A stretch of 50,768 nucleotides of DNA from Phycisphaerae bacterium SM23_30 (GCA_001303695.1 LJUC01000001.1:1-50768); one strand, 5' to 3'. Positions 6,386-36,007 are shown, counted from the first letter of the stretch. Notes: generated from the sequence alone by a model not told the origin. Translations and numbers: made by a program.

Positions 6386-9300
6386 TTACAGATTTTCAAC
6401 GATGACGAAATTTTGCTGGGGGCTCAAATTGGTATTAATCGACTGGGCGGCATAGAAGCCGAACTCGGGCAGGCCGGGCTCAGTATAAACCGTATTACCC
6501 CTGATATGTCCGATAGTGCCTATGCCGGTGGATATCTGTGAGCCGGCGGCGCGGGGCAAGGCCAAACTCTCATAGATCCGGTCGGGCATAACGCCGACAC
6601 CTACAAAGGAGTTCCGCAATTCACCGCCAAACCGGAAGGAGTCGAGTCGTCCCTGATATAAATAATCGTCGGTGGGGTCCTGCAGGCCATTCATGCCGAT
6701 ATCAAAACCGGCCAACAAGTAAGAATCGACGACATCGGTGTCGATGTAAACCTTTCCAAGGTGCCAGGCGCTGATTATGGCCTGATTCATATTGAGGGCC
6801 TTGATGGAATTGATGGTATGGCCGCGGACCTGGGCCGATAGGGCGCCATTTTTAGCGTTAATCGATTTAATGAAATCCCTGGCGAAGATACCTCCGGAGA
6901 TATCCAAGGGAGCCGTAACACTGGCGATGCTGCCGGATTGAGCGACGATTTCGCCGGAGATGGCCCCGGTTTTACTGATTACTTTGCCGATATCTCCATC
7001 AGCCTGGATCTCGCCGGCAATATCACGACGGACATTGACGCGGCGGATTTGCTGAGCGTTGACATAGGCCCCCAGATCGCCTTCGGTGATATTGAGCTTA
7101 TTAATCTCCGCCGCCGCCAGACTCCCTCCCGTGAAGGAGTCCGCCTTGAAGATCCTAAGGTTACCGGCGAAATTCAAAGCGACATCATCTCCGATATGTG
7201 CCGCTTTGACAATCATGGGTTTGGCTGACGCCAGAGAGACGTTTATCACCGCATCATCGGCGATGTCTCCCAGCAGTAATCGGTTCAGGGAGCCGTTGAT
7301 GTCGATGCTTTCGTTGACAGTCACCTTGGGCGCCTTGATAACCGCCAGGCTGTTGTCCGAGATGATGGCGCCGATAAGCGTTTCAGTACCTCTTACGGAG
7401 ATATCAAGCTTGGTGGCCTGGGAGCTTTCTATAAATTCCAATTGATCGATGAAGTGGCCCCCCAGGGCGCCGTTTTGCAGGGAGAAAACGGCACTACCGT
7501 TAGTGATAGATACTTTCACCAGTTGGTTGTGGTAATCAAGAAAACTACGGGGATTTCCCGGGGCCACTTCAATCTGCTCTCCGGGATTATAAACCGACAG
7601 GTCGATGTTGCGGACCGGATCATCCAGGTCATTGGACAATAAAGTCAGGGTTGAATGGGAGGTTCCGAAAATTTCAGGCCGACAGAACAGATCAGCGGTA
7701 ATGGTCTGGTTAGGTTCAATAATAAGTTTACCGTTGGCAAGGTTTGCAGAGGGCACCTGTATTTGAAATTGGTTATCGTTAGTGTACCATTGCCGGATGA
7801 CCAAATCAGCGCTGCCCTCATTGGTGATGGTGAGAGGCAGGCGGGCCTGTTGATGAGGGGACAGGGTGCCGAAGTCAAGGGTTTGTAAGGTGGCGATTTG
7901 GGGAGTGACAGTGTTAGCGGTCAGGATCACCTCGGAGAGACTCGGAGCGCTGCTGTATGCTTTGAGGCTTCCTCTGAAAATTCCTTGGCCCAAAGAGGCC
8001 TGGGCGTCGAATCGGACATTGACCAGGAAATCATCACCCGGCTGTAAAATGAGATAGCCCTGAGGGGCATTTTCCAGTTCGGGGGCGGCGACCCAAAAAC
8101 CGGCGCCGAAGATTTCCACGCCGTTGTTTTGCATCTTAAGTTCCACTTGGCCGTTGTTTCTAATCCGAAACTGATGAGAAGATGTTTGGCTCAACAGAAC
8201 ATAGCCCAGGGATAATTCTGCGTCCTTTTGGACCGATTCCCCCAGGTAAACAAATTCCAGGGAAGGCGCCGTTGATTCTCCCGAGAGGCTCGAAAGCTCC
8301 AGGGCCCGATCACCATCGTTACTGTGAATGACAAGGGTGTCGGAAAATTGTCCGTCACCGGGGGCCTGGAAGGTGATAGTAAGTTCATGGCTGAATCCGG
8401 GAGGAAGCACAATGTCATCCCATTTATAATCAGGCTGATTAATCTGATCGATGGTAAAATCAAGGGGATTATCATTGGCGAGGTGCCAGTCATAAATATA
8501 TAGGGTGTAGTTACCCTCGTTGACCAGAGTGATAGTAGCCTGAGCCGGTTGATTTACCGGATGCCATCCGAAAGGTAAAAATTTATCATCGGAGGCGTGA
8601 CCTTTATTGTCATAGACCGCCAGTTTAGGCGCTACTCCCTGTCCAACTAATCGCACATGGTGATCTCCGGCGGGGACATCGCTGCGGATAATCAAGGTGT
8701 CAACGAATTTATTTATAGCGTAGGGAGTAAATTCCACCTGCAACTTCATGACGTCTCCGCTGGTGCTGCGCGGGGCCAATTGAAAGGGCGTTTCCGGCAT
8801 ATTCCAAATAGAATAGGCCGAATTGTCACCATTGGCGAACTCCAAAGCATTGACAGTCAGTGTCTCATTGCCCATATTCACTAAGACAATAATGATCCCT
8901 TCGCCGGTTACCCCGACCGGTGCGATGTCTAAATCCAGCATGTCAATTTCCTTGCCGCTTCCATCATCAAGTATTACCAGATCCGGCCCTTTCAGGGTAC
9001 CTGTCAAGGTAACGGTGTAGGTTAAATTTTCATCGGTGGAAAAAACCAAACTGCCGGCGGCGGCGGCGGCCCCGTCGGGGGGAAAGGCACTGGGCGCGAA
9101 AACGAGGGGTATATTTTTCACCTGACGGGGCGCGATGACAAATTGCTGTGGGAGCTGCTCCGGATCTTCTAAGCCGAAGGGTTGGAATGAGTGATCGGAG
9201 ATCAGATCCAGATTCATAACGGTGATGGGTTGGTAGGAACGATTGTGAAGGCTAACTACCTCGATGCTATATGTCCCGAGTTCGGTAGGACCAAAGTTAA

Positions 9301-11704
9301 TCATGGCGTCGTATTTATTTGCCGCCGTGTCAGCCACTACAAGACTATTAGGGGAGATGACATGCAGCTCAGAAGCCAATACGTTGGAATAAACGCCATC
9401 ACCCAGGGGAAATTCCGGGATCTCATCCTCAGGATCCACCACCGCTAAAAGATAATAGGCGCCCTCGATCTGATCGGGGATGTAGATCGCGGTCTCAAAA
9501 GCGTAGGTTTCACTCCGGAACAACGAAACGAGGTCGATAGCGGGTTCGAGCAAGATGTCTTCATTAGGGTGGAATAAGGTGTCCGAACTTAGGGCAAAGC
9601 GCAGTTGGGGAATCTCACTAATGTCTCCCTTACCGACATTGGCGACCTTACTCGATATTTCCAGCGGTTTGCCCGCCTGGATTTGGTTAGGAAACATTAG
9701 GTTTAGCGTTTTCACCTCGGTAACGGTAAAGTCTCCCGACATGCCCAGGCCTGAAAGCGCCACGTTGATTACTGTCGGTGCGGCGGCGCCGGTATCAAGC
9801 GACATGATCAGTTCATCCTGCCGCATATCCGCTTGCTGGGGAGTGAACCAGACGGGTATTTCCGCCTGTTTATTGGGATCAAGCATCAGGATATTGTCCG
9901 TTTCTCTGAGGGTGAAATTGAGGTTGAGCTGCTCATCAGGCGATAAAAGATAATTCAGGTAAAGATAATAAGCACCCTTGTTAAAGGAGGTGAATTCATA
10001 TTTTTCAATGGATTTTTCGGTAGAACTTTTCAAATTGATTTGCGAGCCGTGTTCGTTATATAAATGAGGAGTGACCAAATCCAAGGCGGATATTATGGCC
10101 CCCGCCGGGGTGATGAGGGAGTTTTGCAGTTCGAATTGCACCACATCGCCGTAGTCGGCGTCAAACCGGAGCCGCGTTAAGCCCCAGCCGGAAAGATCAG
10201 CGCCGCTGATCGTTTTGGTGTATCTGGCGCCACCGGGGGATAATTGAAGTTTCGGGGCGGGATTAGCGGTAGTGGTGACCAATACTTGATAGCCGACTTC
10301 GTCGGCCAGACTACTACCCAATATTTCCAGGTAATAACCGCCGGTATAAAAGGCAGGAAATTCCAGGGTGATCGCTGGCTCGAATTGATTTACGGTTACT
10401 CCTAAATCAATTTCGTCAAGGATCTGATCACCATGATACGAATAAACATTTACGAGGCCCAAGATGATATCTTCATCCGCATAGGCTTGTATCCTGGCGT
10501 TGATATAACTGCCCTCCAGCGCTTCTACGTAAAAGAGGTCCACGTCAGGAGCGGGGATGGTCAAATTTTGTCCGCGTATATTAAATTCTCCGATTTCTCC
10601 GGAAACGATGGTCCCGACGGCCGGTTCGCCGAGGGCAATTTCCACCGCCTCACTACGGCTGAAATCAAACGTCGGTCCCCACTTGGTATGGGCGCGCGGG
10701 GGCATTTCCAGGGTGTAGTCATGACCGGATATGTCAATATTTTTAATCTCAATGGGTTCATTTTTAAGGTTGGTTAAGTATATGCTTTCGGGTTCGGAGA
10801 CCTGTCCCACGCCGGTGTTGAAAAAGTCGATGCGGCGGTCACCGGGCGGATAACTAGAATCTTCCACAAAGTAAGTAACGTCAAAATATAATTCCGGCGA
10901 AGCCAGATAATTAACCTGGTCCAGAGCCTGATTTTCCCGGTATTCCGGTATTTGCCATAAGGGGTCCACGTTGGCGATGACATGATAAACGCCGCTGAGT
11001 TTGGGGACTTGATCCGGGGGTATAGTATAGTTTAATGTTTGACTTTCCCCTACGGCAAGGCTGGACAAATATATGGTAGGAATGTTAATGAGTTCGTTGA
11101 TTTTCAGTTTTGAAAAAAGCCCCACGGGATCATCGCTGATGAGCAAATCCAATCGCGCTTGCCAAGTGATGTTAGCCGTGCCGACATTTGCCACGGTCAC
11201 CGATATATCAATTGCTTCCCCCGGATCGATCTTCATCGGGTCGTCCGCGCTGGATATGACCAGATCACTGACCGTGAGATCGCCTAGTTTATCCGGATTA
11301 AAAGGTGTTTCACCTTCCACGCCTTCGCCACGCAGATTGATTTTATAGGTTTCCTGAAAAGACTGGGAGTCGAAGGCCACAGTGAGCTCCCCTACCACCT
11401 GTTCGATTTTCCAGGGGATGAAGCCCAGATCGATAAATTTCACTTTTGTAGGCTCGATGCCAATCGGTAAATTGTCGGGCGGTACAAATTTAAATGAAGT
11501 GCTGTTTACACTTATGGATTCAATAGTCACCGGCTCGGTAGTGCTGACGTTCTGGATTTTAAGTGAGCGGTTTAAAGAAATTTCCCCCAATATAGTTTCA
11601 GGGAAGTCTAAAAAATATCCGGCAGCTGTAGCGTCGGCGCCGAAATTATCGATAATGGTAACAGATAGCAGGCAACGCGGTTCCAAGATTTCCACATTTA
11701 GCAT
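6386..11704 (-). CDS. giant (1772 aa) adhesin-like exoprotein with N-terminal LEPRCLLS motif, many Ig-like modules and a conserved C-terminal module
   Basis: ATG backed by GAGG about 7 nt upstream. Starts MLNVEILEPRCLLS with no hydrophobic signal peptide. Repeated choice-of-anchor-D/ASH-like Ig modules (e.g. LDFGTLSPHQQARLPLTITNEGSADLVI, LPFGWHPVNQPAQATITLVNEGNYTLYI). CARDB-like modules (DLTVSDLVI...VTVANVGTANI). PPC-like module (DVDLFYVEALEGSYINARI). The last ~377 aa are homologous to the C-terminus of ORF 31922..36007. Confidence 0.85.
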   Translation of the reverse strand: MLNVEILEPRCLLSVTIIDNFGADATAAGYFLDFPETILGEISLNRSLKIQNVSTTEPVTIESISVNSTSFKFVPPDNLPIGIEPTKVKFIDLGFIPWKIEQVVGELTVAFDSQSFQETYKINLRGEGVEGETPFNPDKLGDLTVSDLVISSADDPMKIDPGEAIDISVTVANVGTANITWQARLDLLISDDPVGLFSKLKINELINIPTIYLSSLAVGESQTLNYTIPPDQVPKLSGVYHVIANVDPLWQIPEYRENQALDQVNYLASPELYFDVTYFVEDSSYPPGDRRIDFFNTGVGQVSEPESIYLTNLKNEPIEIKNIDISGHDYTLEMPPRAHTKWGPTFDFSRSEAVEIALGEPAVGTIVSGEIGEFNIRGQNLTIPAPDVDLFYVEALEGSYINARIQAYADEDIILGLVNVYSYHGDQILDEIDLGVTVNQFEPAITLEFPAFYTGGYYLEILGSSLADEVGYQVLVTTTANPAPKLQLSPGGARYTKTISGADLSGWGLTRLRFDADYGDVVQFELQNSLITPAGAIISALDLVTPHLYNEHGSQINLKSSTEKSIEKYEFTSFNKGAYYLYLNYLLSPDEQLNLNFTLRETDNILMLDPNKQAEIPVWFTPQQADMRQDELIMSLDTGAAAPTVINVALSGLGMSGDFTVTEVKTLNLMFPNQIQAGKPLEISSKVANVGKGDISEIPQLRFALSSDTLFHPNEDILLEPAIDLVSLFRSETYAFETAIYIPDQIEGAYYLLAVVDPEDEIPEFPLGDGVYSNVLASELHVISPNSLVVADTAANKYDAMINFGPTELGTYSIEVVSLHNRSYQPITVMNLDLISDHSFQPFGLEDPEQLPQQFVIAPRQVKNIPLVFAPSAFPPDGAAAAAGSLVFSTDENLTYTVTLTGTLKGPDLVILDDGSGKEIDMLDLDIAPVGVTGEGIIIVLVNMGNETLTVNALEFANGDNSAYSIWNMPETPFQLAPRSTSGDVMKLQVEFTPYAINKFVDTLIIRSDVPAGDHHVRLVGQGVAPKLAVYDNKGHASDDKFLPFGWHPVNQPAQATITLVNEGNYTLYIYDWHLANDNPLDFTIDQINQPDYKWDDIVLPPGFSHELTITFQAPGDGQFSDTLVIHSNDGDRALELSSLSGESTAPSLEFVYLGESVQKDAELSLGYVLLSQTSSHQFRIRNNGQVELKMQNNGVEIFGAGFWVAAPELENAPQGYLILQPGDDFLVNVRFDAQASLGQGIFRGSLKAYSSAPSLSEVILTANTVTPQIATLQTLDFGTLSPHQQARLPLTITNEGSADLVIRQWYTNDNQFQIQVPSANLANGKLIIEPNQTITADLFCRPEIFGTSHSTLTLLSNDLDDPVRNIDLSVYNPGEQIEVAPGNPRSFLDYHNQLVKVSITNGSAVFSLQNGALGGHFIDQLEFIESSQATKLDISVRGTETLIGAIISDNSLAVIKAPKVTVNESIDINGSLNRLLLGDIADDAVINVSLASAKPMIVKAAHIGDDVALNFAGNLRIFKADSFTGGSLAAAEINKLNITEGDLGAYVNAQQIRRVNVRRDIAGEIQADGDIGKVISKTGAISGEIVAQSGSIASVTAPLDISGGIFARDFIKSINAKNGALSAQVRGHTINSIKALNMNQAIISAWHLGKVYIDTDVVDSYLLAGFDIGMNGLQDPTDDYLYQGRLDSFRFGGELRNSFVGVGVMPDRIYESLALPRAAGSQISTGIGTIGHIRGNTVYTEPGLPEFGFYAAQSINTNLSPQQNFVIVENL

Positions 11705-12350
11705 GATTGTACCTCAGTATTACAAAACCGGCTAGTTATTCCTATTTTCTACCAAATCCTTTTGAATAACAATAAAATCATCTTTGGCAGGCTGCTTCCT
11801 AGTGCGCGGTTAGGCGTTCAACCACCCCGCTTTATAAATATAATAACACAGGGATATAATCTTTGTCAAGGATTTACTTATCTACTTTATTTATAAGGAG
11901 TTATAGGGCGTTAGGGCCGCGTAATATCTCCATTGCGCCCGGCAAAGATTCCAGGTGGGGTAAAACTTTGAGATATAAATATGAATCTGAGATCCTAAGT
12001 TACGACCTGAGCTGCAGGCGATTTGTATCAACGTATGTTGTTTAATATCAACATCTTATAACAAAATTGCCTGAAATCCTTGATATTGCCGGCACAAATC
12101 AAATTGGAGATATTATTCCCTTGGCAAATATTATAGTAAATCTTATTGATTTCAATAACTTCTTTGGTTAGAATAATTTATAGTATGAAGGCGGCTGGAA
12201 AATGTCACCTGCTTTCTTATCGTATAAAGTATATATATGCAGAATTTAATCAGGTTCTGATTTAAATCTATGGTTCTGCTCATTTGCCGGAAGATCCTTA
12301 GGATTGATCTATATTAATTAGTATCATATTTGCGTTCAGGAGGCTCTAAG

Positions 12351-15300
12351 TTGAAGTCGCGGAATGCCCTGAGAATAATTCTAGCCCTGTGGGCAATCCA
12401 AGGGGTTTTCGGACTTTCATTGGAGCCGAAAGTTCAGGCGGAACAGATCGTACGTTTTTTAATGGACACCGATCCGGGCTGGAGCGTGGAGGGAGAATGG
12501 GCCTTTGGGATTCCGCAGGGCGGCGGCAACACACGGGGCGTGGATCCAACTTCAGGTTTTACCGGCGATAACGTTTACGGATATAATCTGGCGGGGGATT
12601 ATACAGACAATATGCCGGAGTACCACCTGACCACCACGGCGATGGACTGCACCCGGTATGAAAACGTAAGACTGAATTTTCGGCGTTGGCTGGGGGTGGA
12701 AGCTTCCGGCAATGACCACGCCAAGATTGAAGTGAGCAATGATGGAAGCACCTGGACCTTAGTATGGGAACATACCGGCGTCAATCTCATGGACAGCACT
12801 TGGATTGAGTGCGAATACGACATTTCCGCCGTAGCGGACAGGGAAGATACAGTCTATATTCGTTGGATCATGGGACCCACGGACAAATCCGTGACGTATC
12901 CGGGATGGAATATTGATGACGTTTATTTATTGGGTGATCCGCTGGACAATTTTTCGATTAGCCCGCTGGAGGAATTGAACGCCTCCGGATATGAAGGCGG
13001 ACCTTTCACGCCTTCAGATAAAACCTATACCCTGTACAATAGCGGATTAGCGCCGCTAAGCTGGAACGCCTCCGTCACCCGGAGTTGGCTCAGCGTACAA
13101 CCGGACAAGAGCACGCTGGACGGAGGGGAATCGATACCGATGCAAGTGTACTTTACTCTCGATGCTGATTCTTTGCCGCCGGGCTCATATAGCGATACGG
13201 TAACCTTCACGAATATCACCAGCGGTTTTATCCAAACCCGAGCAGTGACACTAACGGTGAGTACCATTCCCGCGGAGATCGAAGTAACTGATTCGATCTT
13301 TCCGTCCACAGATCTGAGATTACCTTTCGGTGATGTTTTTATCGAGATGGAGCCGCAGGCACAGATTACCATTACTAACGCCGACCCGGATTTCGATCTT
13401 ATTATCGATGAACTTTCTCTCAGTACAGGTAACAACGGATTTCGTCTGGAGAGTGTACCGATGCTGCCGGTAGTGATATCGCCGTTAAACAATATTATTA
13501 TTGATGTAGTTTTTACCCCCACGACGGTCAGGGATTATCAAGATTCGGTGATAATTCAAAGTAATGACGAAGATGAAACACAGGTGGAGGTGAGGTTAAG
13601 CGGCACGGGCAAAATCGACACTTTGCATATTACTCCGACGGAGGATTTCGAGTTTTCGGGTCATCCTGGAGGCCCCTTTGTTCCTTCCAACACTTTTTAT
13701 CATCTGACCAACAACGGCTCGGGGGACATTGACTGGACGGTCCAAGGTCCGTCCTGGCTGGACGTTTCCCTGTTCAGCGGATCTCTTGTACCTGGTGAGT
13801 CGGTATCCGTAAAGTTTTGGCCAAACGCTCTGGCCCCAAACCTGCCCGAGGGCTATTATCTTGGCACGTTGCTTTTTACCAATCTGACCTCTACCGCCGA
13901 ACATAAACGCATGGCGAACTTAAATGTGTACACCGAGCCGAAAATATGGTTCAATCCGTTTTTGTTTGATTTAACCATACCCCAGGGTGACAGTCAAACT
14001 GAAATACTCTCTATCGGCAACAGCGGCGATGCCGTTTTGAAATTTACCTTGTTGAGTAAACACACCGATTTTACTCCCTTGATGGGACAAGAAACAGAGG
14101 GTGAATCAATCGGAATCGCCAGCGGCGATCAAGATAGTAATCTACAAATGGATAATTTTCCCCTCGGAGACGAAACAACTTATGTTCCGGGGGAACTACT
14201 GGTTTGTTTTGCACCGCAAGCAAATGGTGTCCAAACCGATACGGTTCAACGTAATGCCGTCCTGGCAAAACTGGGCCGGGCCACTATTGCACGAGAGTAC
14301 CAAATTGTCCCCGGTTTATGTCTGGTTAAATTGCCTGCCGAAATGAATGTTAGCCAAGCACTGGCTTGGTTCAACCAAGCAGAAGGGATTTTATGTGCGG
14401 TGCCCAATTACAAAGTAAAGGGGACAACAACGATCCCGGATGATACGAGATTTGATGAACTTTGGGGTTTTCATAATAGGGGGCAAAGCGGGGGGACCAT
14501 AGATGCCGATATTGACGCCATAGAAGCTTGGGACATATCAACAGGCAGCGACGAAATCATCGTAGCCGTTATCGATACGGGGGTGGACTACAACCATCCT
14601 GATTTAGCGGTTAATATGTGGGTCAACGAAGCGGAGTATGACGGGACGATTGGCTTTGACGACGACGGCAATGGTTTTGTCGATGATATTTACGGGTACG
14701 ATTTTCTCAACGAAGACGGCGACCCCATGGATGATCATTATCACGGCACCCACGTGGCGGGGGTGATCGGGGCGGTGGGAAACAACAGCGAAGGGGTGGC
14801 GGGAGTATGCTGGAACGTTCGCCTTATGGCGCTCAAGTTTCTTGACAAAAGCGCCAACGGTTCGGATGCTGATGCGATTGCATGTATCGATTACAGCATT
14901 TTAATGGGCGCGAAAGTGTTGAACAATTCCTGGGGCCGAACAGGTTTTTCCTCCCCGCTGCTAAAGGCGGCGATAGAAAGAGCAAGGGAGGCGGGGGTTT
15001 TATTCGTAGCGTCTGCCGGCAATAACGGCGACAATAATGAAATTTGGCCCAATTACCCGTCGAGTTATAATACCGAAAACATCATTGCCGTGATGGCGAC
15101 CGACCGGAACGACGAAAGATCCATATGGTATGGGGACACTTCCTCAAATTATGGCGCCACCACGGTTGATCTCAGTGCCCCGGGTTCTGAGATCTTAAGT
15201 TGTCAGTCGGGTGGGGGATATCAATCCCATAGCGGCACCTCGGCAGCCGCTCCTCATGTCAGCGGTGCGGCAGCCTTGATATGGTCTGTGAGTCCTTCCT

Positions 15301-24708: not shown

Positions 24709-24719
24709 AGATCAACATA

Positions 24720-25982: not shown

Positions 25983-25983
25983 T

Positions 25984-26658
25984 ATGGTAGCGGTGAATCT
26001 TACTCCTGATGAATTTAAGACCGCCCAAAAGCGGCGGCAACGCTTGCGTTTTTGGGTATTGATGCTGCTGGCGGTTGCCATAACGGCGGGGGGCTGGGCA
26101 ACTATGATATATTTCGATTATCGGCGGGCGAATCAGACCCTGCATAGAATCACCCGGGAATATCAAGACCTGCAACATACTATTAAAGCGCTCGGTCAGG
26201 TGCGGAATCGGCTTGACCTTTGGCAGGATCGTATCGCCTTGCTTAATGAATTAAATCATTACCATGATTTTGTCAGAGTCACTGACTACCTCACGCAGCA
26301 TAGTCCTGATTTAATATATTTAGAGCAAATGAAATTCTGGCGGCCTGATAAGCCGCAAAGCACGGACCAACCCAAAACTCAATCTAAAGCGGCGCATATG
26401 TTTATATTGAAACACGGTGCCGAGGGCGAGGCTGTCGCGGCGACCGACACGAATATCGAACCCATTATGATATCTCTAAAAGGAAGATCGGTCAATTATC
26501 AGGCGGTGGCCGATTATTTGCAGATGCTAAGCTCGGCCGACATCATTGCCGGGGCCCAGTTAAAATACAGCCGTCGTCAATCCGCCTTATCATCGGAAAC
26601 CGGCGAAATCGTCGATTTTGAAATCGAGGCCCGGTTGCTTCCGATGCTTTCTCCATAG
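25984..26658 (+). CDS. pilN: PilN-like bitopic pilus/secretion alignment protein
   Basis: ORF 25897..26658, with ATG 25984 one nt after the pilM stop. N-terminal MVAVNLTPDEFK...RLRFWVLMLLAVAITAGGWA matches the PilN NLLP + TM pattern, followed by a coiled coil. Confidence 0.6.
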   Translation: MVAVNLTPDEFKTAQKRRQRLRFWVLMLLAVAITAGGWATMIYFDYRRANQTLHRITREYQDLQHTIKALGQVRNRLDLWQDRIALLNELNHYHDFVRVTDYLTQHSPDLIYLEQMKFWRPDKPQSTDQPKTQSKAAHMFILKHGAEGEAVAATDTNIEPIMISLKGRSVNYQAVADYLQMLSSADIIAGAQLKYSRRQSALSSETGEIVDFEIEARLLPMLSP

Positions 26659-26659
26659 G

Positions 26660-27214
26660 ATGTGGTATATGTTGATATGTAAAAAACCAAAAATTTTTGA
26701 CGTTGATCTTTACGCCCTTGCCGCCTTTGTCGGCTTTTGCGCTCTGACGTGGTTGGCGCTGATTAAGCCTCTGAATGAAAAAGTATCCCAGCAGCATCTG
26801 GATCAGGAAGAACAAAGGCTAAATAAAGAATCGGCACAAACCAAGCTGGTAAACCTCCAAGAATTGACCCGTCAAGAACAGGTTTTGGCCTCGAGGTTGA
26901 AGCAAACCAGAAACATTCTGGGTGATAATGCCGCAATACCTGAAGCGATAAGAAATATGGAACGTCTGTGCCGGCTTTGCGGGCTGCGCCTTGATGAAAT
27001 CAATCCGGGAGAAGATACTTTCACCCAACATTTCCGCAAAACCGGCTTGCATCTGCGCCTGAGCGGCACCTTCCCCCAGGGACAGGCGCTTTTGACTCAA
27101 ATCAGAGAAGAACTGTATTACGTGCGCATTAAATCCATGTTAGTGACTATGAAAGATACCCAGCTAAACCTGTGCGAGATAGTTATCGATTTGGACATTT
27201 TCAGTGCCCGGTGA
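26660..27214 (+). CDS. pilO: PilO-like bitopic alignment protein
   Basis: ORF 26618..27214, with ATG 26660 one nt after the pilN stop. TM segment LYALAAFVGFCALTWLALI, coiled coil and a small C-terminal domain. Assigned by position and topology. Confidence 0.5.
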   Translation: MWYMLICKKPKIFDVDLYALAAFVGFCALTWLALIKPLNEKVSQQHLDQEEQRLNKESAQTKLVNLQELTRQEQVLASRLKQTRNILGDNAAIPEAIRNMERLCRLCGLRLDEINPGEDTFTQHFRKTGLHLRLSGTFPQGQALLTQIREELYYVRIKSMLVTMKDTQLNLCEIVIDLDIFSAR

Positions 27215-27270
27215 CATTTGGAGATGCTCTGTTAAAAACTAAGAGCATCATATAATAAGGTCGCATTACC

Positions 27271-27888
27271 ATGACGAAATCACGAAAGATTTACGTCGGC
27301 ATCTTAATAACGGCGATCAGCGCCCTTATATTTGATAAAGCGGTATTGCGCCCTTCGGTGAGCGAGCCTCAAACTACCCTGGCGCGCCCCGCCCAATCCC
27401 CAACGCCGGACACTAACGTCGCACCTCCGGTTGAGAAACCTCTCGACCAGCAATTCCCCTTTCCTGTTTCTCCCGTTCTATCTGCTACTACTTCCCTGTC
27501 TGCCGAAACAACGTCGGGGACGGCCAATAATTCAACCCTTTCCCTTAAAGAAGCAGTGCATAAAGTACTGCACGCCATAGGGAGCGGGCTTGCCCCGCCG
27601 GAAGTTCCCCATGAAACCAGAGATTTGTTTGCTGCTTCTGATGAATTTCTATCGGCCCTTCGTAACAATTCCCCGCTCCAGGACGATCAAAAAGCACCTC
27701 CAATACCCACCATGACCTTGCACTTGACGGGTATATTAATCGGGCCTGAAAATCGCTGCGCTGTAATTAATAACGAAGTGCTGTTTTGCGGTCAGAATAT
27801 AGGACCCTATCAAGTTCTGGAGATATATCCCGATCAGGTCATACTGGCGATACAATCGGAACGTATAACCTTGTTTCTTGATAAATAA
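27271..27888 (+). CDS. PilP / GspC-like protein (TM anchor, Pro/Ser/Thr-rich linker, small beta domain)
   Basis: N-terminal TM helix. Low-complexity linker rich in P, S and T. C-terminal TLHLTGILIGPENRCAVINNEVLFCGQNIGPYQVLEIYPDQVILAI resembles the PilP/GspC HR-domain pattern. Confidence 0.4.
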   Translation: MTKSRKIYVGILITAISALIFDKAVLRPSVSEPQTTLARPAQSPTPDTNVAPPVEKPLDQQFPFPVSPVLSATTSLSAETTSGTANNSTLSLKEAVHKVLHAIGSGLAPPEVPHETRDLFAASDEFLSALRNNSPLQDDQKAPPIPTMTLHLTGILIGPENRCAVINNEVLFCGQNIGPYQVLEIYPDQVILAIQSERITLFLDK

Positions 27889-28106
27889 CTTGCCTCGGAC
27901 CTTCGGTCTTTAGCCCTAACCTCCTGCGGTCGCCATTAATATTGGTATTGACGAGGTTTTTGCAAAACTTCGGTATTGATATAAATCTGGCGGCGGTGAT
28001 ACCCGATATAAAATAACGGTTCCTGTGAAATAATATGCCTACTATCGTTTTAGCAAATTCAGACATTTGATGAATATAAGAAAAAGCGAATAAAGGAGAA
28101 ACTCAT

Positions 28107-28640
28107 ATGTTCCAAAGAAATCCCCGGCGGAGGGCATTCAGCCTGATTGAGTTGGTGATAGTCATCGTAATTTTAGGCATCATCGCGGCTATTGCCATCC
28201 CCCGAATTGGCTCGGGAAGTAGAAACGCCGGCGAGTCGGCCCTGCGGGCCAACCTGGCCAGCCTCCGCAACGCCATTGACTGGTACTATGGCGAGCATCA
28301 CAACGTCTATCCGGGCGCCAATCCTGACGGCCTGGGGGGCGGGGCCGATTCGGAAGCCGCTTTTGTTAGTCAGTTGACCATGTACAGCGACGCAAATGGC
28401 AATGTTTCCGCTAGTAAAGATCCTGCCTTTCCCTTTGGGCCTTACATTCGCGTTGACATTCCCGAATTGCCCGTAGGGGCTAATGCCGGCCAAAATACGG
28501 TTACGGTGGTGAATCAGGCCGGTCCTCTGGTAGCCAATCCTGGCGACGGTAACGGCTGGCTCTTTAACGCCAACACCGGGCAGTTCATCGCCAATTCAAC
28601 GGATGCCGGCAGTGACGGTGTCACTTATGATTTGTACTAA
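28107..28640 (+). CDS. gspG: major pseudopilin (GspG-like, prepilin-type N-terminus)
   Basis: AAGGAG at 28093-28098. N-terminus MFQRNPRRRA/FSLIELVIVIVILGIIAAIAIPR. GspG-like LASLRNAIDWYYGEHHNVYPG. Followed by its own terminator. Confidence 0.8.
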   Translation: MFQRNPRRRAFSLIELVIVIVILGIIAAIAIPRIGSGSRNAGESALRANLASLRNAIDWYYGEHHNVYPGANPDGLGGGADSEAAFVSQLTMYSDANGNVSASKDPAFPFGPYIRVDIPELPVGANAGQNTVTVVNQAGPLVANPGDGNGWLFNANTGQFIANSTDAGSDGVTYDLY

Positions 28641-28697
28641 TCAGACTTAGTTGGCGAATTAATACACTTATTTGTGGAACTCATGACCTAAAGTCCG

Positions 28698-28746
28698 AAA
28701 ACAGGTCCTGGAGCGGCGGCTGTTTGCTGTCCGGGACCTGTTTTTT
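28698..28746 (+). terminator. rho-independent terminator after the major pseudopilin gene
   Basis: Stem CAGGTCC (28702-28708) pairs with GGACCTG (28734-28740) and can extend inward. Followed by TTTTTT (28741-28746). Confidence 0.55.
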
Positions 28747-28790
28747 CTATGTTTAACCAAACTTGTGCAAAACTTTAATTTTTATCCATA

Positions 28791-29342
28791 ATGTTTAATA
28801 CTGCGAAAATATTTTTTATCAAACCAAAAATCAGGAGCGGCTTTTCCCTGGTGGAACTGGTGATAAGCGCTTTCCTTGTTGCCCTCATCGCCGGAGCGGT
28901 CAGCTTGGCCCTGTATCAGTCCCATCAGCACAGCGACCGGACCCGCATCGACCTGATCCGGTTACAGCGAACCAACAAAATCCTGCAAACCATAGCCGAA
29001 GACTTGCGCTGGGCCCGGGAAATTCTGCAATTCGATGAACAAACGATAAGTTTCAGCACTCCTGATCCTGATAATATCGGTGCCACCTTGGAAATTACTT
29101 ATCAGTGGAATGAGTACCAATACGCCCTGTATCAATCGGTCGAGGGAGATTACCCCGTCTTGGTGGCGGAAAATGTTAACTTCTTTATTTTCCAGGCTGA
29201 TGTAGTGGAAGAAAAGTTGGGCCCCAAGACATATTCTTATCTCCGCGGCGTGACCGTAACCATACAGATAGGACCCCATGTTAACGACGGTTTGCAGCGA
29301 TACATCGAGTGCTATAACCGGCCCGTTTATCAACCGGAATAA
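28791..29342 (+). CDS. minor pseudopilin (prepilin-type N-terminal cleavage/methylation domain)
   Basis: Leader MFNTAKIFFIKPKIRSG / FSLVELVISAFLVALIAGAV, with Glu at +5. Confidence 0.7.
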   Translation: MFNTAKIFFIKPKIRSGFSLVELVISAFLVALIAGAVSLALYQSHQHSDRTRIDLIRLQRTNKILQTIAEDLRWAREILQFDEQTISFSTPDPDNIGATLEITYQWNEYQYALYQSVEGDYPVLVAENVNFFIFQADVVEEKLGPKTYSYLRGVTVTIQIGPHVNDGLQRYIECYNRPVYQPE

Positions 29343-29344
29343 TA

Positions 29345-29824
29345 ATGATTAATAATCTACATGACTATCCTTTTAACCGTCCGGGTATGTCATTGGCCGA
29401 ACTGATCATCGTCCTGTGCATCACGGCGTTGTTGGCTTCCATTGCCACCCTGACTTTTAGCGGCATGACCGGTCGAGCCCAACTGCAAAGCGCCGCCGAT
29501 CGCCTGATAAGCGATTTGCGCCTGGTCCGCGACCAGGCGCAGAGTGATAAAAAAACCTACACCCTCCAAATTAAACCGGGTCTGCTGAGCTATGAGGCGC
29601 CAGGTGTTTTTGATATTAATAACGAGCGAGATATTTCCGTGAACCTGGGGGATAGTTACTATCGAATTAACGCCATGATTATTCAACTGGATAATGGCAG
29701 CAGTATCTCCTTTGACAAGCGAGGTAAACCCTCTTCGGTCGGCAATATAATCCTGCGCCGTGGTTTAGATAAAATTACCATAGTGATAAACAAGGTAGGT
29801 AGAATTGAGCAAATTGATCCCTAG
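29345..29824 (+). CDS. minor pseudopilin, GspH/FimT-like
   Basis: RPG/MSLAELIIVLCITALLASIA prepilin motif. ADRLISDLRLVRDQA resembles the GspH/FimT helix. Starts 2 nt after the upstream stop. Confidence 0.65.
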   Translation: MINNLHDYPFNRPGMSLAELIIVLCITALLASIATLTFSGMTGRAQLQSAADRLISDLRLVRDQAQSDKKTYTLQIKPGLLSYEAPGVFDINNERDISVNLGDSYYRINAMIIQLDNGSSISFDKRGKPSSVGNIILRRGLDKITIVINKVGRIEQIDP

Positions 29825-30419
29825 AAACAGCAATATTCGCCGTAAACTTGTCGGGACAGGATTATCATATGTCGAGGTCCTGCTGGCCTCGGTTATTATG
29901 GCGGTTTTATTGGTATCAGCGGTTCGGATTTTCGGTAATATCGGTCGTTCCAGCCGAATGGTTGCCGATCAGGATAGCGCCGCGAGGCTGGCCTTGGAAA
30001 TGATCCAGGAAATAAAACAGCTCCCCTATAAAGATCCCGCCTCCGCCATCCAGGGTGATTTGGGTCCCGAAACCGACGAGAAAGGCTCGTACCGCAGCTT
30101 ATTTGACGACGTCGATGATTACCACGGCTGGTCGGCATCTCCCCCCCAGGACCGTACCGGAGAGGACCTCATCCCGTATTCCCACCTTACCCGCAACGTA
30201 AAAGTTTATTTCGCAGATGCCGGCAACTTCAAACAACCGGTCCTCTCTGACGAAGGTTTCAAAGCCGTCGCTATAACTATCAGTCAAGCGGATAAAACCC
30301 TCGCCCAGCAGACTTATGTTATTGCCGATGTAGCGCAAATTACTATTGATAAATCCTTGCCGACACCAAAACCAACCTCACTACCGCCGGATGATGGTGA
30401 TAATGATATCAATGAGTAA
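29805..30419 (+). CDS. minor pseudopilin (GspI-like size and N-terminus)
   Basis: TTG start. LVGTG/LSYVEVLLASVIMAVLLV prepilin-like motif with Glu at +5. Overlaps the upstream gene by 20 nt. Confidence 0.6.
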   Translation: MSKLIPRNSNIRRKLVGTGLSYVEVLLASVIMAVLLVSAVRIFGNIGRSSRMVADQDSAARLALEMIQEIKQLPYKDPASAIQGDLGPETDEKGSYRSLFDDVDDYHGWSASPPQDRTGEDLIPYSHLTRNVKVYFADAGNFKQPVLSDEGFKAVAITISQADKTLAQQTYVIADVAQITIDKSLPTPKPTSLPPDDGDNDINE

Positions 30420-31608
30420 ACATAAAAGAGCTAGCATTTACATCTTAACCCTGGCTTCAGCGATGGTGCTGGTGTCGCTGGTTTTAGGCCTGTCTTACTT
30501 GGTCATGCAGTCGCGCCGCAGCTTACGCACCAACGCCGAAATCGACCGGGCCCGCGTTTATGCCGAACTGGGTATCTACCACGCCCTGCATTTTACCGCC
30601 GTCGAACCCAACTGGCGCCAGCTTCTTCCCAGCGGAATATGGCTGCAGGACGTCACCGTTGATCAGGCCACCTACTCTGTTTCCGGGATCGATCCGGTAG
30701 ATGGAAATCTGGCCAATAATCAGGTAGATCCGGTGGATTTGATCTGCACCGCCGCGGTCAACGGCGCCCAACATACCCTTCAGGTTCAGGCCCAAAACGC
30801 CCCGTCGGAACTCTTGAAATATGCCCTTGCCGCCGGCGGCTTAATCGACATCAATAATCACGCCCGCATCGAAGGTGATGTATTCACCAACAGCAATATT
30901 GATAAATCCGGCGGCGATACCTGGGTCTTCGGCGACGCTGAAGCGGTGGGGTCTATTCATGAAACCGCCAACATCACAGGTGAGATAACACCCGGCGCCG
31001 CCGCCAAAAACTTCCCCGACGACCAGGTCCTGGTTAATTATTATCTGAACCATGCCACACCAATTCCCTTTATAAACCAAATCCAGGAAGTTCTAATAAG
31101 CCCGATCTCGAATCCCCTTGGCCCGATCAATCCCGAGGGACTCTATATAATCAACTGCACCAGCCAGAAAATCGTCATCCGCAATTGCCGCATCGTAGGC
31201 ACCCTGGTCCTGGTAAATCCCAAAAGCGACAGCGAAATCAAAGACGCCATTAACTGGCAGCCCGCTCTGGCCGATTACCCGGCCCTGGTGGTGGTGGATG
31301 GCGCCGTAAAGATTCAACCCAATATGGACCTCGATGAGAATAATCTCAAAGTTGATTTTAATCTGCCGGGTGAGGATGGCCAGGGCGAAAATTATCAGAC
31401 TTTTCCCAACCTTATCTTTGGTCCGATATACTGCCGCGGCAATTTAGAACTGGGTAACTCTGTTAACGTCCAGGGTCCGGTTATCAGCACCGGCTTTCTC
31501 GTCTTAAAAGATTACGCCAAAGTCACTATCGTGCCGAATTATTATCATCACCCTCCAAAATATTACCGTGAAACCTACCTCGCCCCCATCCGCGGCACCT
31601 GGAAATAG
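30412..31608 (+). CDS. PilX/GspK-like large minor pseudopilin (no Glu+5) with repetitive beta-rich C-terminal region
   Basis: ORF 30346..31608. ATG 30412 overlaps the upstream stop (ATGAGTAA). MSKHKRASIYILTLASAMVLVSLVLGLSYLV resembles the PilX_N/GspK hydrophobic N-terminus and lacks the cleavage-site Gly/Glu pattern. Confidence 0.5.
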   Translation: MSKHKRASIYILTLASAMVLVSLVLGLSYLVMQSRRSLRTNAEIDRARVYAELGIYHALHFTAVEPNWRQLLPSGIWLQDVTVDQATYSVSGIDPVDGNLANNQVDPVDLICTAAVNGAQHTLQVQAQNAPSELLKYALAAGGLIDINNHARIEGDVFTNSNIDKSGGDTWVFGDAEAVGSIHETANITGEITPGAAAKNFPDDQVLVNYYLNHATPIPFINQIQEVLISPISNPLGPINPEGLYIINCTSQKIVIRNCRIVGTLVLVNPKSDSEIKDAINWQPALADYPALVVVDGAVKIQPNMDLDENNLKVDFNLPGEDGQGENYQTFPNLIFGPIYCRGNLELGNSVNVQGPVISTGFLVLKDYAKVTIVPNYYHHPPKYYRETYLAPIRGTWK

Positions 31609-31921: not shown

Positions 31922-34900
31922 ATGAGGCGCTTACGTCGAAAATTCGCCCAGGCTGCTGGTGCACATTCAAACTCACCTGTTCCTGGCCCAAATCCTCTTC
32001 TTAATCTGGAGACCTTGGAGCCGCGGGTACTGCTTAACGGTACGCTGCCGGGGTCGGAGCATTCATACGAGTATGGTTGGACCGACGCCCTTGGCGGCAG
32101 CGGGAGTGATATCTCCTACGATATCACCCTGGATTCCCAGGGTAATATCTTCCTGACGGGATATTTCCATGGCACCGTTGACTTCGATCCCACCGCCGAA
32201 TCGGATAGTCACACCTCGAATGGCAGTTCCGATGTCTTTGTTACTAAGTTAAACAACGACGGCAGTTACGCCTGGACCGTGACCTTCGGGGCAGGCGACA
32301 GTGATTGCGGCAAGGCCGTGGCGGTCGATCCCGATGATAATGTCTTCGTAACCGGCTCTTTCTTGGATACGGTGGACTTTGAAGACGGAGAAGAACTTAT
32401 CTCCAATGGCAATGCGGATATCTTTGTTGCCAAGTTCCAACCTGATGGCACCTTTGAATGGGCGGTGTCTTTTGGTTCTGGTGGTTGGGATCAGGGCAAC
32501 GACATTGCCGTCGATTCGGCGGGAAATGTCCTGGTGACGGGCGAATTCACCGGTACTATTGACTTTAATCCTACAGGCGAAGGAGGTGAACGTACTTCCA
32601 ATGGTAGTATCGATATTTTTGTTACTAAACTGGATAGCAACGGCAACTATTCTTGGAGCCACACTTTCGGGGGAGATGATGTCGATAGAGGCTACGCCGT
32701 CGCGGTAGATGCCGCGAACTCAGTATATATAACCGGCCGATTTGGTTTAACGGTTGATTTCGATCCCGACCCGATAAAAGAAAAAAAAGAAACTTCAAAT
32801 GGCGGTTATGATGTTTTTATTACCAAAATCAATGCCTTCGGCATCTATAGTTGGACGGAAACCTTCGGCGGTGCAGGTTGGGATGAAAGCCGCGGCCTCG
32901 CCCTCTTCCAGGTGGATGACGACAACTGCTATGTCTATGTAACCGGGGAATTCTCTGAAACCGTCGATTTTAACCCTACCGATGATATGGATAGTCATAC
33001 CTCCAATGGCTTCAGAGATATTTTCGTCACCAAAATAACAGGTGGTAGCCATTACGAATGGACCGTCACCTTAGGTGGATCGCATAGTGACTATGGCAGA
33101 GACCTTGTTGCGGACGCTCAGGGAAATGTGATTGTGACGGGTGATTATGAGGGCTTCGTCGATTTTGATCCCGCCGGGGGAACAGAAGATAATTATACAT
33201 CAAACGGCCTTTCGGATATTTTTATTACTCAATTAACCGCCGACGGCTCCTACGGCTGGACCGCAGCCGCCGGAGGAATTGGAAATGACACAGGTCTTGG
33301 GGTGGCAGTGGGGCCCGCACCTGCTGCGAACATCTTTGTCACGGGTCATTTTCAAGAAACCGTGGATTTCGATCCCAACGATACCACTGATCTGCGAACC
33401 TCATCCGGCGAACACGACTTTTTTGTCACCATGTTGGACCCTAACAATCCACCCACCGCGGATTCTTTGACGGCATATCCTGATCCGGTGGCCCGGGGTG
33501 ATCTCATCACTTTGTCCGCCGTTAACGTTGTAGATGCCGATGGAGACATTGACAGCGTCCGCTTCTACCGAGACAACAATAATAACGGCCAGTTGGATTT
33601 GGACGCGGATGTCTTTCTGGGAGAGATCAGCGGGGAGTCTATGGCCTTTGATTGGACTGGTACGACCAGCAATTTCCCTCTTGGCAACAATACCTTTTTT
33701 GCTCAAGTACAGGATGACGACGGCGCCTTGAGTAATATTGTCAGCGTTACCGCCTGGATTAATGAGCGGCCTTCAATCGCTTTCCTTTCCCATAGCCCTT
33801 CTGTGGTGCTGATCGGCGATGACCTCACCTTGACCGCCAACAATGTCGTTGATACTGATGGGGTAGTCACCAGTGTCGAATTTTATCGGGATGCCAACGG
33901 AAATCACAACCTGGATCTGGATACCGATGATTTTCTCGGAATGGGTATCCAAAACGTGGATGACTTCTTCTGGATCGGATCGACTACTGGATTCAATATT
34001 GGAACAAATTATTGCTTCGCCCGGGCCCAGGATAATGATCTGGGCTGGAGTTATGCCGCCAGCAACGATGTTTTGGTTTATAATCCGCCTACCATGGACT
34101 CCCAACTCCTTGATGCTCCCGACCCGGTGGTGAACTTGGGTGAAAACCTGACGATAACCGCCGTTAATGTCCAGGATGGCGATGGCAATGTCCCTAAGGT
34201 CGAATTTTATAGAGATATTAATGGTAACCAAACCCTAGACGTGGGCGTAGATGATTTATTGGGTGTTGACACCGATGGATCCGATGGCTTCTCCTGGACC
34301 GGGCCTACCACCGGCTTTAATATCGGATTAAATCTGAACCATTATTTCGCCCGGGCTCAGGACGATGACAATCCCAATGCCTTTAGCAACATCGCCGCCA
34401 CTACCGGCAGAGTAAACGATCGACCTTCCATCGATCTATCTGCCAATCCTGACCCGGTAATTCAAGGTTTTCCTCTTATGATCTCTGCCATTAATGTCAG
34501 CGACAGCGACGGATACATCATCCAGGTTGATTTTTACCGAGACGATAACGACAACGACGTTCTCGACTTTGACGCCGATACGCTGATAAAACAAGATACC
34601 GACGGCTCGGATGATTGGTTCTGGTTTGGAGTAACCAGCGGGTTGCCCGTGAAAACCCATCGCTACTTTGCTCGGGCCCTGGATAATGACGGCGCCTTTA
34701 GCGACGTCGCTGCCGTTACTTCAACCGTTGAACACTTTAGCATTACCGCCGGCCTGCCCAACAGCAAAACCGTCAAATATATGGACTCCGATGGCTCTGA
34801 GGTTAAGCTTAAACTCGAACGAGGTACCGCCACCTTGTATTTTGAAGGCGATTCCCTCAGTTCCTCGGTCAAGGGAAGCACCGTTACCCTCTCCGACAAA

Positions 34901-36007
34901 GCCGATCTAATTAAGGTCCAGCTCCTGAACACCGATCACCGAAGCAGTTTATCCTTTATCGTTAAAGGAGGAGATGGTCAAACCACTCTGGCCGGGCTCA
35001 CCGGCGGCACCCTCAATAAAATCACCGGTAAAAATGTTGACCTGATCGGGGATATTGATTTAACCGGTTCCCTGAGTTCTCTGATCTTGGATGACATCGA
35101 CCCCAACGTCTCTATCAGCACCCAGCTTCCCTCGGTTAAAGGGTTGAAAGTAAAAGCCGATCAAATCGCCGATGGAGTCGCCTTCAATATCGCAGATGAC
35201 GTCAAAAGCTTTCAAGCCTCCGCCTTTGCCGGCGGTTCGGTTACGGCCGATATGATAAAATCTGTCAAAATTAAGCAAGGTCCGCTGGGCGCCGATCTGA
35301 TCTCGCAAATCGGCCCCATCGCCAAAGTATATGCCTTCGGCAACATTGAAGGAAGTATAGACTCCGCTGGGTTCGTCAAGACCATTACCAGTAAAACCGG
35401 CGGCATCGGCCCCCAGACGCTCATTACCGCCCAAGACGGTTATATTAGCGCAGTTACCGCTTCCCAGGACATTGCCGGAGGTATCATAGCCCACGATTTC
35501 ATTAAAAAAATCACCTCCAAAAAGGGTGATTTCACCGGCCTGGCCCAGGCCGGCCTGGATGTCGCCAAGATTCAGGCCCACAATTTCCAAAACGCGGTAA
35601 TTGCCGCCGCTGGTGATCTAAAGAAAATCATTGCCAAAGGCGATATAGATCAATCCTTCTTCATGGCGGGCTACGATATGAGTTACGGCACTATCCAGGG
35701 AGTCGGAGACGGTGATGTCGGTTCCATTACCGTCCGGGGCGCCTTCAGCGATAGCTTCATCAGCGCCGCCGTCCTGCCGCCCGTCCCGCAGTTAATGGAT
35801 GTCCTGCCCAATGTGGCCCCGCCCTATATAGGATTAGGCTACAGCGGTAATATCGGTAAGGTGAAATTCGGCGCTATCGACATGAACGCCGACGATGATT
35901 TCGGTCTCTACGCCGCCGACAGTATCAAACCCGTCAAAGTCGGTAATGTGACCTTTATGGATAGCGACCCCCTCTTGCACTTTATGATAGAAGACTTCCT
36001 GGGTTAA
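31922..36007 (+). CDS. giant (1361 aa) exoprotein with LEPRVLL N-terminal motif, 7 SBBP-type beta-propeller repeats, 4 tandem Ig-like repeats and a conserved C-terminal module
   Basis: AAGGAG Shine-Dalgarno. N-terminus MRRLRRKF...LLNLETLEPRVLLNG without a hydrophobic core. Seven repeats of the pattern G..D.g..vAvD..GNvfvTG.F.gTVDFDP....h.SnG..DiFVTK. Four ~107-aa repeats (33449-34735) sharing V.FYRD.NgN..LD...D.lLG...F.ARAqDdD. C-terminal 401 aa homologous to the C-terminus of ORF 6386..11704. Confidence 0.85.
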   Translation: MRRLRRKFAQAAGAHSNSPVPGPNPLLNLETLEPRVLLNGTLPGSEHSYEYGWTDALGGSGSDISYDITLDSQGNIFLTGYFHGTVDFDPTAESDSHTSNGSSDVFVTKLNNDGSYAWTVTFGAGDSDCGKAVAVDPDDNVFVTGSFLDTVDFEDGEELISNGNADIFVAKFQPDGTFEWAVSFGSGGWDQGNDIAVDSAGNVLVTGEFTGTIDFNPTGEGGERTSNGSIDIFVTKLDSNGNYSWSHTFGGDDVDRGYAVAVDAANSVYITGRFGLTVDFDPDPIKEKKETSNGGYDVFITKINAFGIYSWTETFGGAGWDESRGLALFQVDDDNCYVYVTGEFSETVDFNPTDDMDSHTSNGFRDIFVTKITGGSHYEWTVTLGGSHSDYGRDLVADAQGNVIVTGDYEGFVDFDPAGGTEDNYTSNGLSDIFITQLTADGSYGWTAAAGGIGNDTGLGVAVGPAPAANIFVTGHFQETVDFDPNDTTDLRTSSGEHDFFVTMLDPNNPPTADSLTAYPDPVARGDLITLSAVNVVDADGDIDSVRFYRDNNNNGQLDLDADVFLGEISGESMAFDWTGTTSNFPLGNNTFFAQVQDDDGALSNIVSVTAWINERPSIAFLSHSPSVVLIGDDLTLTANNVVDTDGVVTSVEFYRDANGNHNLDLDTDDFLGMGIQNVDDFFWIGSTTGFNIGTNYCFARAQDNDLGWSYAASNDVLVYNPPTMDSQLLDAPDPVVNLGENLTITAVNVQDGDGNVPKVEFYRDINGNQTLDVGVDDLLGVDTDGSDGFSWTGPTTGFNIGLNLNHYFARAQDDDNPNAFSNIAATTGRVNDRPSIDLSANPDPVIQGFPLMISAINVSDSDGYIIQVDFYRDDNDNDVLDFDADTLIKQDTDGSDDWFWFGVTSGLPVKTHRYFARALDNDGAFSDVAAVTSTVEHFSITAGLPNSKTVKYMDSDGSEVKLKLERGTATLYFEGDSLSSSVKGSTVTLSDKADLIKVQLLNTDHRSSLSFIVKGGDGQTTLAGLTGGTLNKITGKNVDLIGDIDLTGSLSSLILDDIDPNVSISTQLPSVKGLKVKADQIADGVAFNIADDVKSFQASAFAGGSVTADMIKSVKIKQGPLGADLISQIGPIAKVYAFGNIEGSIDSAGFVKTITSKTGGIGPQTLITAQDGYISAVTASQDIAGGIIAHDFIKKITSKKGDFTGLAQAGLDVAKIQAHNFQNAVIAAAGDLKKIIAKGDIDQSFFMAGYDMSYGTIQGVGDGDVGSITVRGAFSDSFISAAVLPPVPQLMDVLPNVAPPYIGLGYSGNIGKVKFGAIDMNADDDFGLYAADSIKPVKVGNVTFMDSDPLLHFMIEDFLG

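Follow-up and report, generated by a model that had tools for sequence, protein, structure and literature searches.

The window examined here is a stretch of 50,768 nt from the metagenome-assembled genome (MAG) of Phycisphaerae bacterium SM23_30 (GCA_001303695.1 LJUC01000001.1:1-50768). It encodes two giant proteins, P1 (open reading frame (ORF) 11704..6386, minus strand) and P2 (ORF 31922..36007, plus strand), which were singled out in a first reading of the DNA, referred to below as the original prediction. With a little better than even confidence, P1 and P2 can be regarded as members, with unrelated passengers, of one class of cell-surface or secreted proteins of the Planctomycetota. It is favoured to the same modest extent that they are solitary surface proteins consisting of an export-signal motif, a variable passenger and a C-terminal sorting or anchoring module. 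The motif itself and the idea of a non-Sec export signal are already known; what is new is a C-terminal, solenoid-like family that is coupled to the motif and locked to the terminus, together with a validated short form of the motif and replacements of the motif by signal peptides. The features of the two proteins are as follows.

6386..11704, minus strand: P1, 1772 residues; motif, linker of ~15 residues, Ig-like/CARDB/choice-of-anchor D passenger, C-terminal module; putative LEPR-XLL-type surface protein
11663..11704, minus strand: P1 motif MLNVEILEPRCLLS, short form starting at Met1; 24 family members alike
6389..7579, minus strand: P1 C-terminal module, residues 1376-1772; BLASTP match to P2, predicted to be all-beta and beta-solenoid-like
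31922..36007, plus strand: P2, 1361 residues; basic pre-region, motif, seven-blade SBBP propeller, four Ig-like repeats, C-terminal module
31922..32038, plus strand: P2 N-terminal signal-like region, long form; basic MRRLRRK... at residues 1-26, then LNLETLEPRVLLN at residues 27-39
34730..36004, plus strand: P2 C-terminal module, residues 937-1361, of another module subfamily than that of P1

Both ORFs were recovered with the extents and N-termini originally given for them, as were their ribosome-binding sites, GAGG 7 nt before the ATG of P1 and AAGGAG 8 nt before that of P2. The core LEPRxLL begins at residue 7 in P1 and at residue 32 in P2. The original prediction had named a canonical Sec or Tat signal, revealed by a different start codon, as an observation that would speak against it, and such a signal was looked for. 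The reading frame of P2 opens merely 8 codons upstream of its start and neither ORF can be extended; as both frames are closed by upstream in-frame stops, a hidden upstream start encoding a signal peptide is excluded. The passengers of the two proteins were also largely as described. Pfam and NCBIfam models identify Cep192_D4, HYDIN/VesB Ig-like, CARDB, TMEM131_like_N and five choice-of-anchor D domains in P1, the last being a name given by NCBIfam for a position upstream of alternative C-terminal anchors. P2 holds an SBBP propeller with seven D[IV]F[VI]TK blades and four FYRD-type Ig-like repeats. The Ig-like and CARDB domains of P1 and the blades and repeats of P2 thus stand as extracellular-type modules, but a PPC-like domain also claimed for P1 had no Pfam match at E<=0.1.

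The proposed homology of the two C-termini is far beyond chance, with a BLASTP alignment of P1 residues 1376-1756 to P2 residues 937-1335 (E=3e-38, 31% identity, 407 columns). When 1.84 billion cluster representatives were searched exhaustively by HMMER with a module profile, 667 proteins were recovered at E<=1e-3, of which 95 reached E<=1e-30, against the one partial protein returned by word-indexed homologue searches with a single sequence or a 17-sequence profile. Counts of coupling and position rest on 95 complete module proteins. The motif was present within the first 100 residues of 81 of these, which bears out the suggestion that motif and module mark one protein class, and several of the 14 members without it are variants (LESLNPRLLLS, IEILESRIAPA) or mis-called starts, an example being P0002, which is P2 called from an internal TTG. 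Position is equally constrained: the tail following the module is 0-20 residues in ~78/95, the exceptions being for the most part giant proteins that contain the solenoid part again at internal positions. Passengers vary widely among the members and include Ig-like arrays, SBBP propellers, LTD and a C11 peptidase, while the five genome matches were all to Planctomycetota (Sedimentisphaerales, Phycisphaerae, Pirellulales). The modules of P1 and P2 belong to different subfamilies, so that a local duplication is rejected as the origin of the pair. In the literature searched, no description was found of a tight coupling between motif and module.

No match to the module was found in Pfam-A (2025 copy) or NCBIfam release 20. 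Scans of whole P1 and P2 (Pfam E<=0.1, NCBIfam E<=1) gave no C-terminal match, models of the type IX secretion system C-terminal domain (T9SS CTD), PEP-CTERM and LPXTG included, and 17 module sequences scanned at E<=1 gave scattered single-member noise alone. The module profile likewise had no relative among the sequences in the PDB. AlphaFold2 predicts, with a mean predicted local distance difference test (pLDDT) of 92.9 and a predicted template modelling score (pTM) of 0.91, an all-beta structure that includes a run of ~20-residue coils; this beta-solenoid-like model is in line with the beta-helix that had been expected. Foldseek searches of the model against PDB and BFVD gave nothing significant (E>=0.46, template modelling (TM) score <=0.28), so that the weak top matches, the two-partner secretion (TPS) domains of HMW1 and EtpA and the passenger of Hap, all of them beta-helix adhesins, represent no real structural match.

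As stated in the original prediction, LEPRxLL-type N-termini recur on large planctomycetal exoproteins, and the motif is already catalogued as NCBIfam NF012209 (LEPR-XLL), a 24-position N-terminal model that resembles Pfam PF07595 (Planc_extracel). P2 scores 19.1 bits at full length and 23.7 bits with its N-terminal 63 residues (LEPR-8K) against the NF012209 cut-off of 17 bits, whereas its score of 11 bits (E=0.38) with PF07595, a model built on Rhodopirellula sequences, is below the gathering threshold of 25.5 bits. As in other LEPR-XLL proteins, the motif is found at the extreme N-terminus of large proteins from a Planctomycetota source. P1 holds the invariant core E-x-L-E-x-R-x-L-L common to 24 short-form relatives. 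The short form is genuine: ML.LE.LE.R.LLS opens 24 family members at residue 1, and the short-form Met of P1-like loci has an in-frame stop 2-30 codons before it. An extended motif, L-x-L-E-x-L-E/D-x-R-[LVC]-L-L-[STND], could be drawn from the 81 motif proteins, none of which departs from Glu at -2 or Arg at +3; in the long forms a pre-region of ~23 residues, with a mean net charge of +4.6, stands before it.

The first 60 residues of P1 and P2 contain no lipobox, prepilin or twin-arginine pattern (regular expression search) and no match to PF10518 TAT_signal was found, and a hydrophobicity scan gave maximum 11-residue Kyte-Doolittle values of 1.60 (P1) and 0.47 (P2) against 2.3-3.2 for four Sec signal-peptide controls. 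The absence of Sec, Tat, lipoprotein or prepilin character noted at the outset therefore holds. P1 does have an uncharged 8-residue stretch, CLLSVTII, but this is preceded by an acidic N-region. When residues 1-150 of P1 were modelled by AlphaFold2 with 17 aligned sequences, residues 1-30 formed a coil of low confidence (pLDDT 51-59) outside an Ig-like domain at residues 31-130 (pLDDT 86-95), which indicates that the motif is an N-terminal extension and not a strand of the first domain.

The literature attributes the motif to Studholme et al. 2004 (Studholme, Fuerst and Bateman), where RRLxxExLExRxLLA of Rhodopirellula baltica was put forward as a new, planctomycete-specific export signal. A study of the subcellular proteome of Tuwongella immobilis reported 52 genes with the motif, which occurs in 8 of the 10 longest proteins of that genome; 20 of the proteins were detected, 8 of them solely in the sodium dodecyl sulphate (SDS)/cell-envelope fraction (PMC8567305). 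The literature searched on LEPR-XLL and on secretion signals of giant proteins contained no mechanistic study and no paper identifying the export route.

Of the comparative evidence for the motif as an N-terminal export signal, two independent replacements are the strongest available. Two members, P0016 and P0129, carry a Sec signal peptide exactly at the position of the motif in their relatives. P0016 opens MKKLSWLLVAAIAFALTPCFGA where P1-like relatives have ML.LE.LE.RCLLS, and what comes after this can be aligned to the first Ig domain of those relatives. Its gene is a positional orthologue from a Phycisphaerae MAG, lying downstream of tuf-secE-nusG-rplKAJL-rpoB in a slot that is held by motif-bearing genes in loci L001, L006 and L011/L012.

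L004 / L029 10001-14752, plus strand: P0016 gene; Sec signal peptide, no LEPR-XLL motif

P0129 opens MLSKNSFISKRHFAMVLLAFLVLFGTLNAE and continues GDWVELGWRSASSGGVSW; P0111, P0114, P0115 and P0123 carry the motif, ...LENLERRLLLATPGWWDELGRSSGSGGGVSW, in place of this Sec-type signal peptide, and the sequences downstream can be aligned by eye. These comparisons argue that the motif serves as an N-terminal export signal.

The design proposed for P1 and P2 has three parts. An unstructured motif, bare at Met1 or following a basic stretch of ~23 residues, would act as an export signal replacing the Sec peptide; a variable passenger (e.g. Ig-like, CARDB, choice-of-anchor D, SBBP propeller, LTD or C11 protease) would follow; and the terminus-locked solenoid-like module of ~400 residues would sort the protein or anchor it to the cell envelope. 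The motif would accordingly be what drives export and the module what anchors or sorts, the latter role being likened by inference to that of the C-terminal sorting domain of other surface-protein systems. Several points weigh against this. A module of 400 residues is very large for a sorting tag and could be an adhesive tip or structural stalk. The export of P1 and P2 and the localisation of the module are predictions from sequence. Only 2/95 members show the signal-peptide replacement, and no partner gene common to all module proteins was found. Finally, P1 matched neither NF012209 (E<=10) nor PF07595, both of which miss it because its motif starts at Met1. A bolder form of the proposal, tentative and on balance rather unlikely, sees in motif and module the two ends of a sorting pathway specific to the Planctomycetota. 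The signal would be neither Sec nor Tat, the module would provide for outer-membrane passage or for covalent or non-covalent anchoring, and the machinery would be other than the adjacent type II/IV-like cluster.

It has also to be considered that export is by Sec, with the motif as no more than an unusual signal for it, or a Sec-avoidance element or targeting enhancer, missed by predictors, and that the module is purely adhesive or structural with no sorting role. The basic pre-region of the long forms does resemble the n-region of a signal peptide, the motif is rich in Leu and interchangeable with a Sec signal peptide in orthologues, and the weak structural neighbours of the module are adhesin beta-helices. 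However, there is no h-region, the maximum 11-residue hydrophobicity of motif proteins being 1.20 +/- 0.51, well under the range of the Sec controls; two invariant acidic residues and one Arg lie within the Leu-rich stretch, and the short forms are net-acidic at the N-terminus. Nor would a purely adhesive role explain why the module is so strictly C-terminal and why it goes together with the motif in 85% of members, and this explanation is unlikely.

The original prediction itself held that motif and module may mark dedicated cargo, or fibre-associated adhesins, of the GspE/GspF/PilMNO/pseudopilin machine encoded by the adjacent cluster. The relevant features are these.

16487..31608: type IV pilus/type II secretion-like cluster; same gene order in orthologous clusters L021-L025
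16487-21705: regulatory set before GspE; same set in L021-L025
L025 21495-21737, plus strand: PQQ-propeller/malectin protein of 1351 residues with a Sec signal, after the GspK-like gene, in the position that P2 has in the window

The cluster runs in the order HD-GYP, probable response regulator (by position), PAS-histidine kinase, unknown, STAS, GspE, GspF, PilM, PilN, PilO, T2SSB/C-like, four pseudopilins and GspK-like, and no secretin was found in the window. P1 and P2 bracket it as far as position goes, but an S8 protease gene (12330..16394) separates P1 from it. In favour of a functional tie, neither module gene is more than 10 kb from the cluster; P2 is on the same strand as the last cluster gene and begins 313 nt downstream of it, a gap in which no promoter-like or terminator-like site was found; and L025 has its large secreted propeller protein in the same place, albeit with a Sec signal peptide. 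As no second module gene was found in 349 kb of related loci, two within 30 kb is mildly unusual.

Comparison with other genomes does not sustain the tie. In the five orthologous clusters (L021-L025), whose GspE proteins are 75-80% identical, the order from HD-GYP to the GspK-like gene is kept exactly in all five; the conserved block ends there and the flanks all differ. The gene after GspK-like encodes a MocA oxidoreductase in L021, a 2Fe-2S protein in L022 and a histidine kinase on the opposite strand in L023, and in L024 a GspK-like paralogue is followed by an unknown gene. No motif ORF or module was found within 10 kb of GspE in any of the five. Related module loci were recovered with a sub-alignment around LAGYDIG, which recovers the P1-like subfamily only; a locus search with a 3-sequence module alignment gave nothing. 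The 12 independent module loci (nine P1-like groups, one P2-like, one LTD-type and one C11-protease-type) sit among housekeeping genes, and none has a homologue of any cluster gene, GspE, GspF, PilM/N/O and pseudopilins included, in up to 10 kb of flank where the contig reaches. Given this lack of conserved linkage on either side, the adjacency of P1 and P2 to the pilus/secretion cluster looks incidental. The different subfamilies of the two modules, the requirement of classical type II substrates for prior Sec or Tat export and the missing secretin tell in the same direction, and a role as dedicated cargo or fibre adhesins of this machine, which the original prediction had inferred, was not supported and is now highly improbable. 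The missing linkage only removes evidence for type II-like export, and leaves room for a type II-like outer-membrane step.

A separate observation concerns the control of the cluster. In the window and in L021-L025 the GspE operon is preceded by genes for HD-GYP, a small response regulator, a PAS-histidine kinase, an unknown protein of ~450 residues and STAS. ORF 17833-18204 (minus strand) of the window is, judged by position, the probable response regulator, and the unknown protein has 372 residues there. This set suggests that the pilus/secretion system, whose cluster includes no secretin gene, is under cyclic-di-GMP and partner-switching control.

A type I-like route, in which the protein would leave C-terminus first through an ABC transporter, membrane fusion protein (MFP) and TolC that recognise the module, with the motif as a retention plug as in LapA-type RTX adhesins, would suit the non-Sec N-terminus, the conserved module locked to the extreme C-terminus, the large size and the beta-solenoid fold. 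However, the P1 module contains no GGxGxD nonapeptide repeats, no match to RTX or haemolysin-type calcium-binding models was obtained, and neither the window nor the annotated loci L001, L018 and L026-L029 were found to contain ABC/MFP/TolC genes. Orthologues with a Sec signal peptide where the motif would be imply that the N-terminus has to direct a step of export through the inner membrane, which argues against a purely C-terminal one-step route, and the type I-like route is very unlikely. Scarcely any credence can be given to the idea that the proteins are not exported and that the motif serves some purpose inside the cell: P1 and P2 lack a recognisable signal peptide and their localisation is a prediction, but their domain content is of extracellular type, a Sec signal peptide takes the place of the motif in orthologues and proteins with the motif go with the cell-envelope fraction in T. 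immobilis (PMC8567305).

Returning to P1 and P2 as putative surface proteins with a presumed export motif and a C-terminal module, the neighbourhoods of P1-like genes offer some further observations, the positions of which are listed here.

12330..16394, plus strand: S8 subtilase with Sec-type signal peptide and dockerin-like domain, divergent from P1
L003 1-5166, minus strand: protease or related neighbour
L013 3-3599, minus strand: protease or related neighbour
L015 2174-6199, minus strand: protease or related neighbour
L006 845-5854, minus strand: protease or related neighbour
L010 3-2606, plus strand: protease or related neighbour
L002 11327-12442, plus strand: Zn-ribbon membrane protein
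L013 11243-12376, plus strand: Zn-ribbon membrane protein
L010 8451-9638, plus strand: Zn-ribbon membrane protein
L005 4422-5573, plus strand: Zn-ribbon membrane protein

At most of the ten independent P1-like loci the adjoining gene, usually divergent, encodes a large secreted multidomain protease or a related protein. The class of protease varies, being M6 in L003/L008/L009 and L013, C10 in L015 and InhA-MAM/M26-like in L006, with a Glug/PASTA protein in its place in L010, and dockerin-like domains are present in the S8 protease of the window, one M6 protease and the C10 protease of L015. Protease and P1-like surface protein may thus form a conserved gene pair. In four independent groups a protein of ~380 residues is encoded directly downstream of the P1-like gene, with an N-terminal CxxC...CxxC zinc-ribbon, 5-6 predicted transmembrane segments and a weak match to DUF4013, and a lipoprotein of ~300 residues is found on the opposite strand near P1-like genes, also in four groups. 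As universal partners the membrane protein and the lipoprotein were rejected, both being absent from the window; these two and the proteases are leads for the function of P1 and not for the whole family. An S41 protease beside P1 was also rejected as a conserved partner, with no tblastn match above the 50-bit reporting cut-off in L001-L017.

This S41 C-terminal processing protease, which has a PDZ domain (4814-6259), adjoins a radical SAM/SPASM enzyme (3194-4771) in the region 2534-6259; a 660-nt gap before the latter, with no listed ORF of >=100 residues, could hold a small precursor peptide. Two further elements were recorded in the remainder of the window.

45706-45889, plus strand: cobalamin riboswitch (103 bits with RF00174), followed by a DUF4465 gene (46017-46913) and further ORFs
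37544-37620, minus strand: tRNA-Pro (TGG), between a GHMP-kinase gene and an ORF of 431 residues

How planctomycetes export very large surface proteins that have no Sec or Tat signals is a question that has stood since the motif was described in 2004. It is now apparent that a defined subset of motif proteins also has a conserved, confidently foldable and terminus-locked C-terminal domain. The replacements in positional orthologues provide a comparative handle on the motif as export signal, and the module adds another marker specific to the family, one suited to phylogenetic profiling; if a dedicated sorting pathway does exist, the module family would be the first handle for finding its machinery in this way. 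A tempting tie to the neighbouring pilus/secretion genes has at the same time been removed as unsupported.

Among known systems, the likeness of P1 and P2 to type II substrates or type IV pilus adhesins consists of adjacency to a GspE/F-PilMNO-pseudopilin cluster in this one genome, and they differ from these in having no Sec/Tat signal, no prepilin motif and no conserved linkage (0/5 clusters, 0/12 loci). They differ from type I RTX adhesins in the missing GGxGxD repeats of the P1 module, the lack of an RTX model match and the lack of transporter genes in the window. Type Va secretion system (T5aSS) autotransporters and TpsA proteins share with them a large beta-helical adhesin-like architecture, a conserved terminal module of ~300-400 residues and a variable passenger. 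In contrast to T5aSS proteins, P1 and P2 lack a Sec signal and their module is modelled as a soluble-type solenoid of ~20-residue coils and not as a membrane barrel, autotransporter models having no match in the whole-protein Pfam scan; the TPS domain of TpsA is N-terminal, whereas the module is C-terminal. The systems based on T9SS CTD, PEP-CTERM/exosortase and LPXTG/sortase likewise have a variable passenger with a conserved signal on its N-terminal side and a conserved, terminus-locked domain on its C-terminal side, and the choice-of-anchor D domains of P1 recall them, but the signal of P1 and P2 is not Sec-type and the module is 4-10 times larger, solenoid-like and matched by none of their models. 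The likeness to LEPR-XLL (NF012209) and Planc_extracel (PF07595) proteins comprises LxLExLExRxLL at the N-terminus, no h-region, a Planctomycetota host and large multidomain proteins of extracellular type, from which P1 is set apart by its short form at Met1, and both proteins by the coupling of the motif to a specific C-terminal module of ~400 residues.

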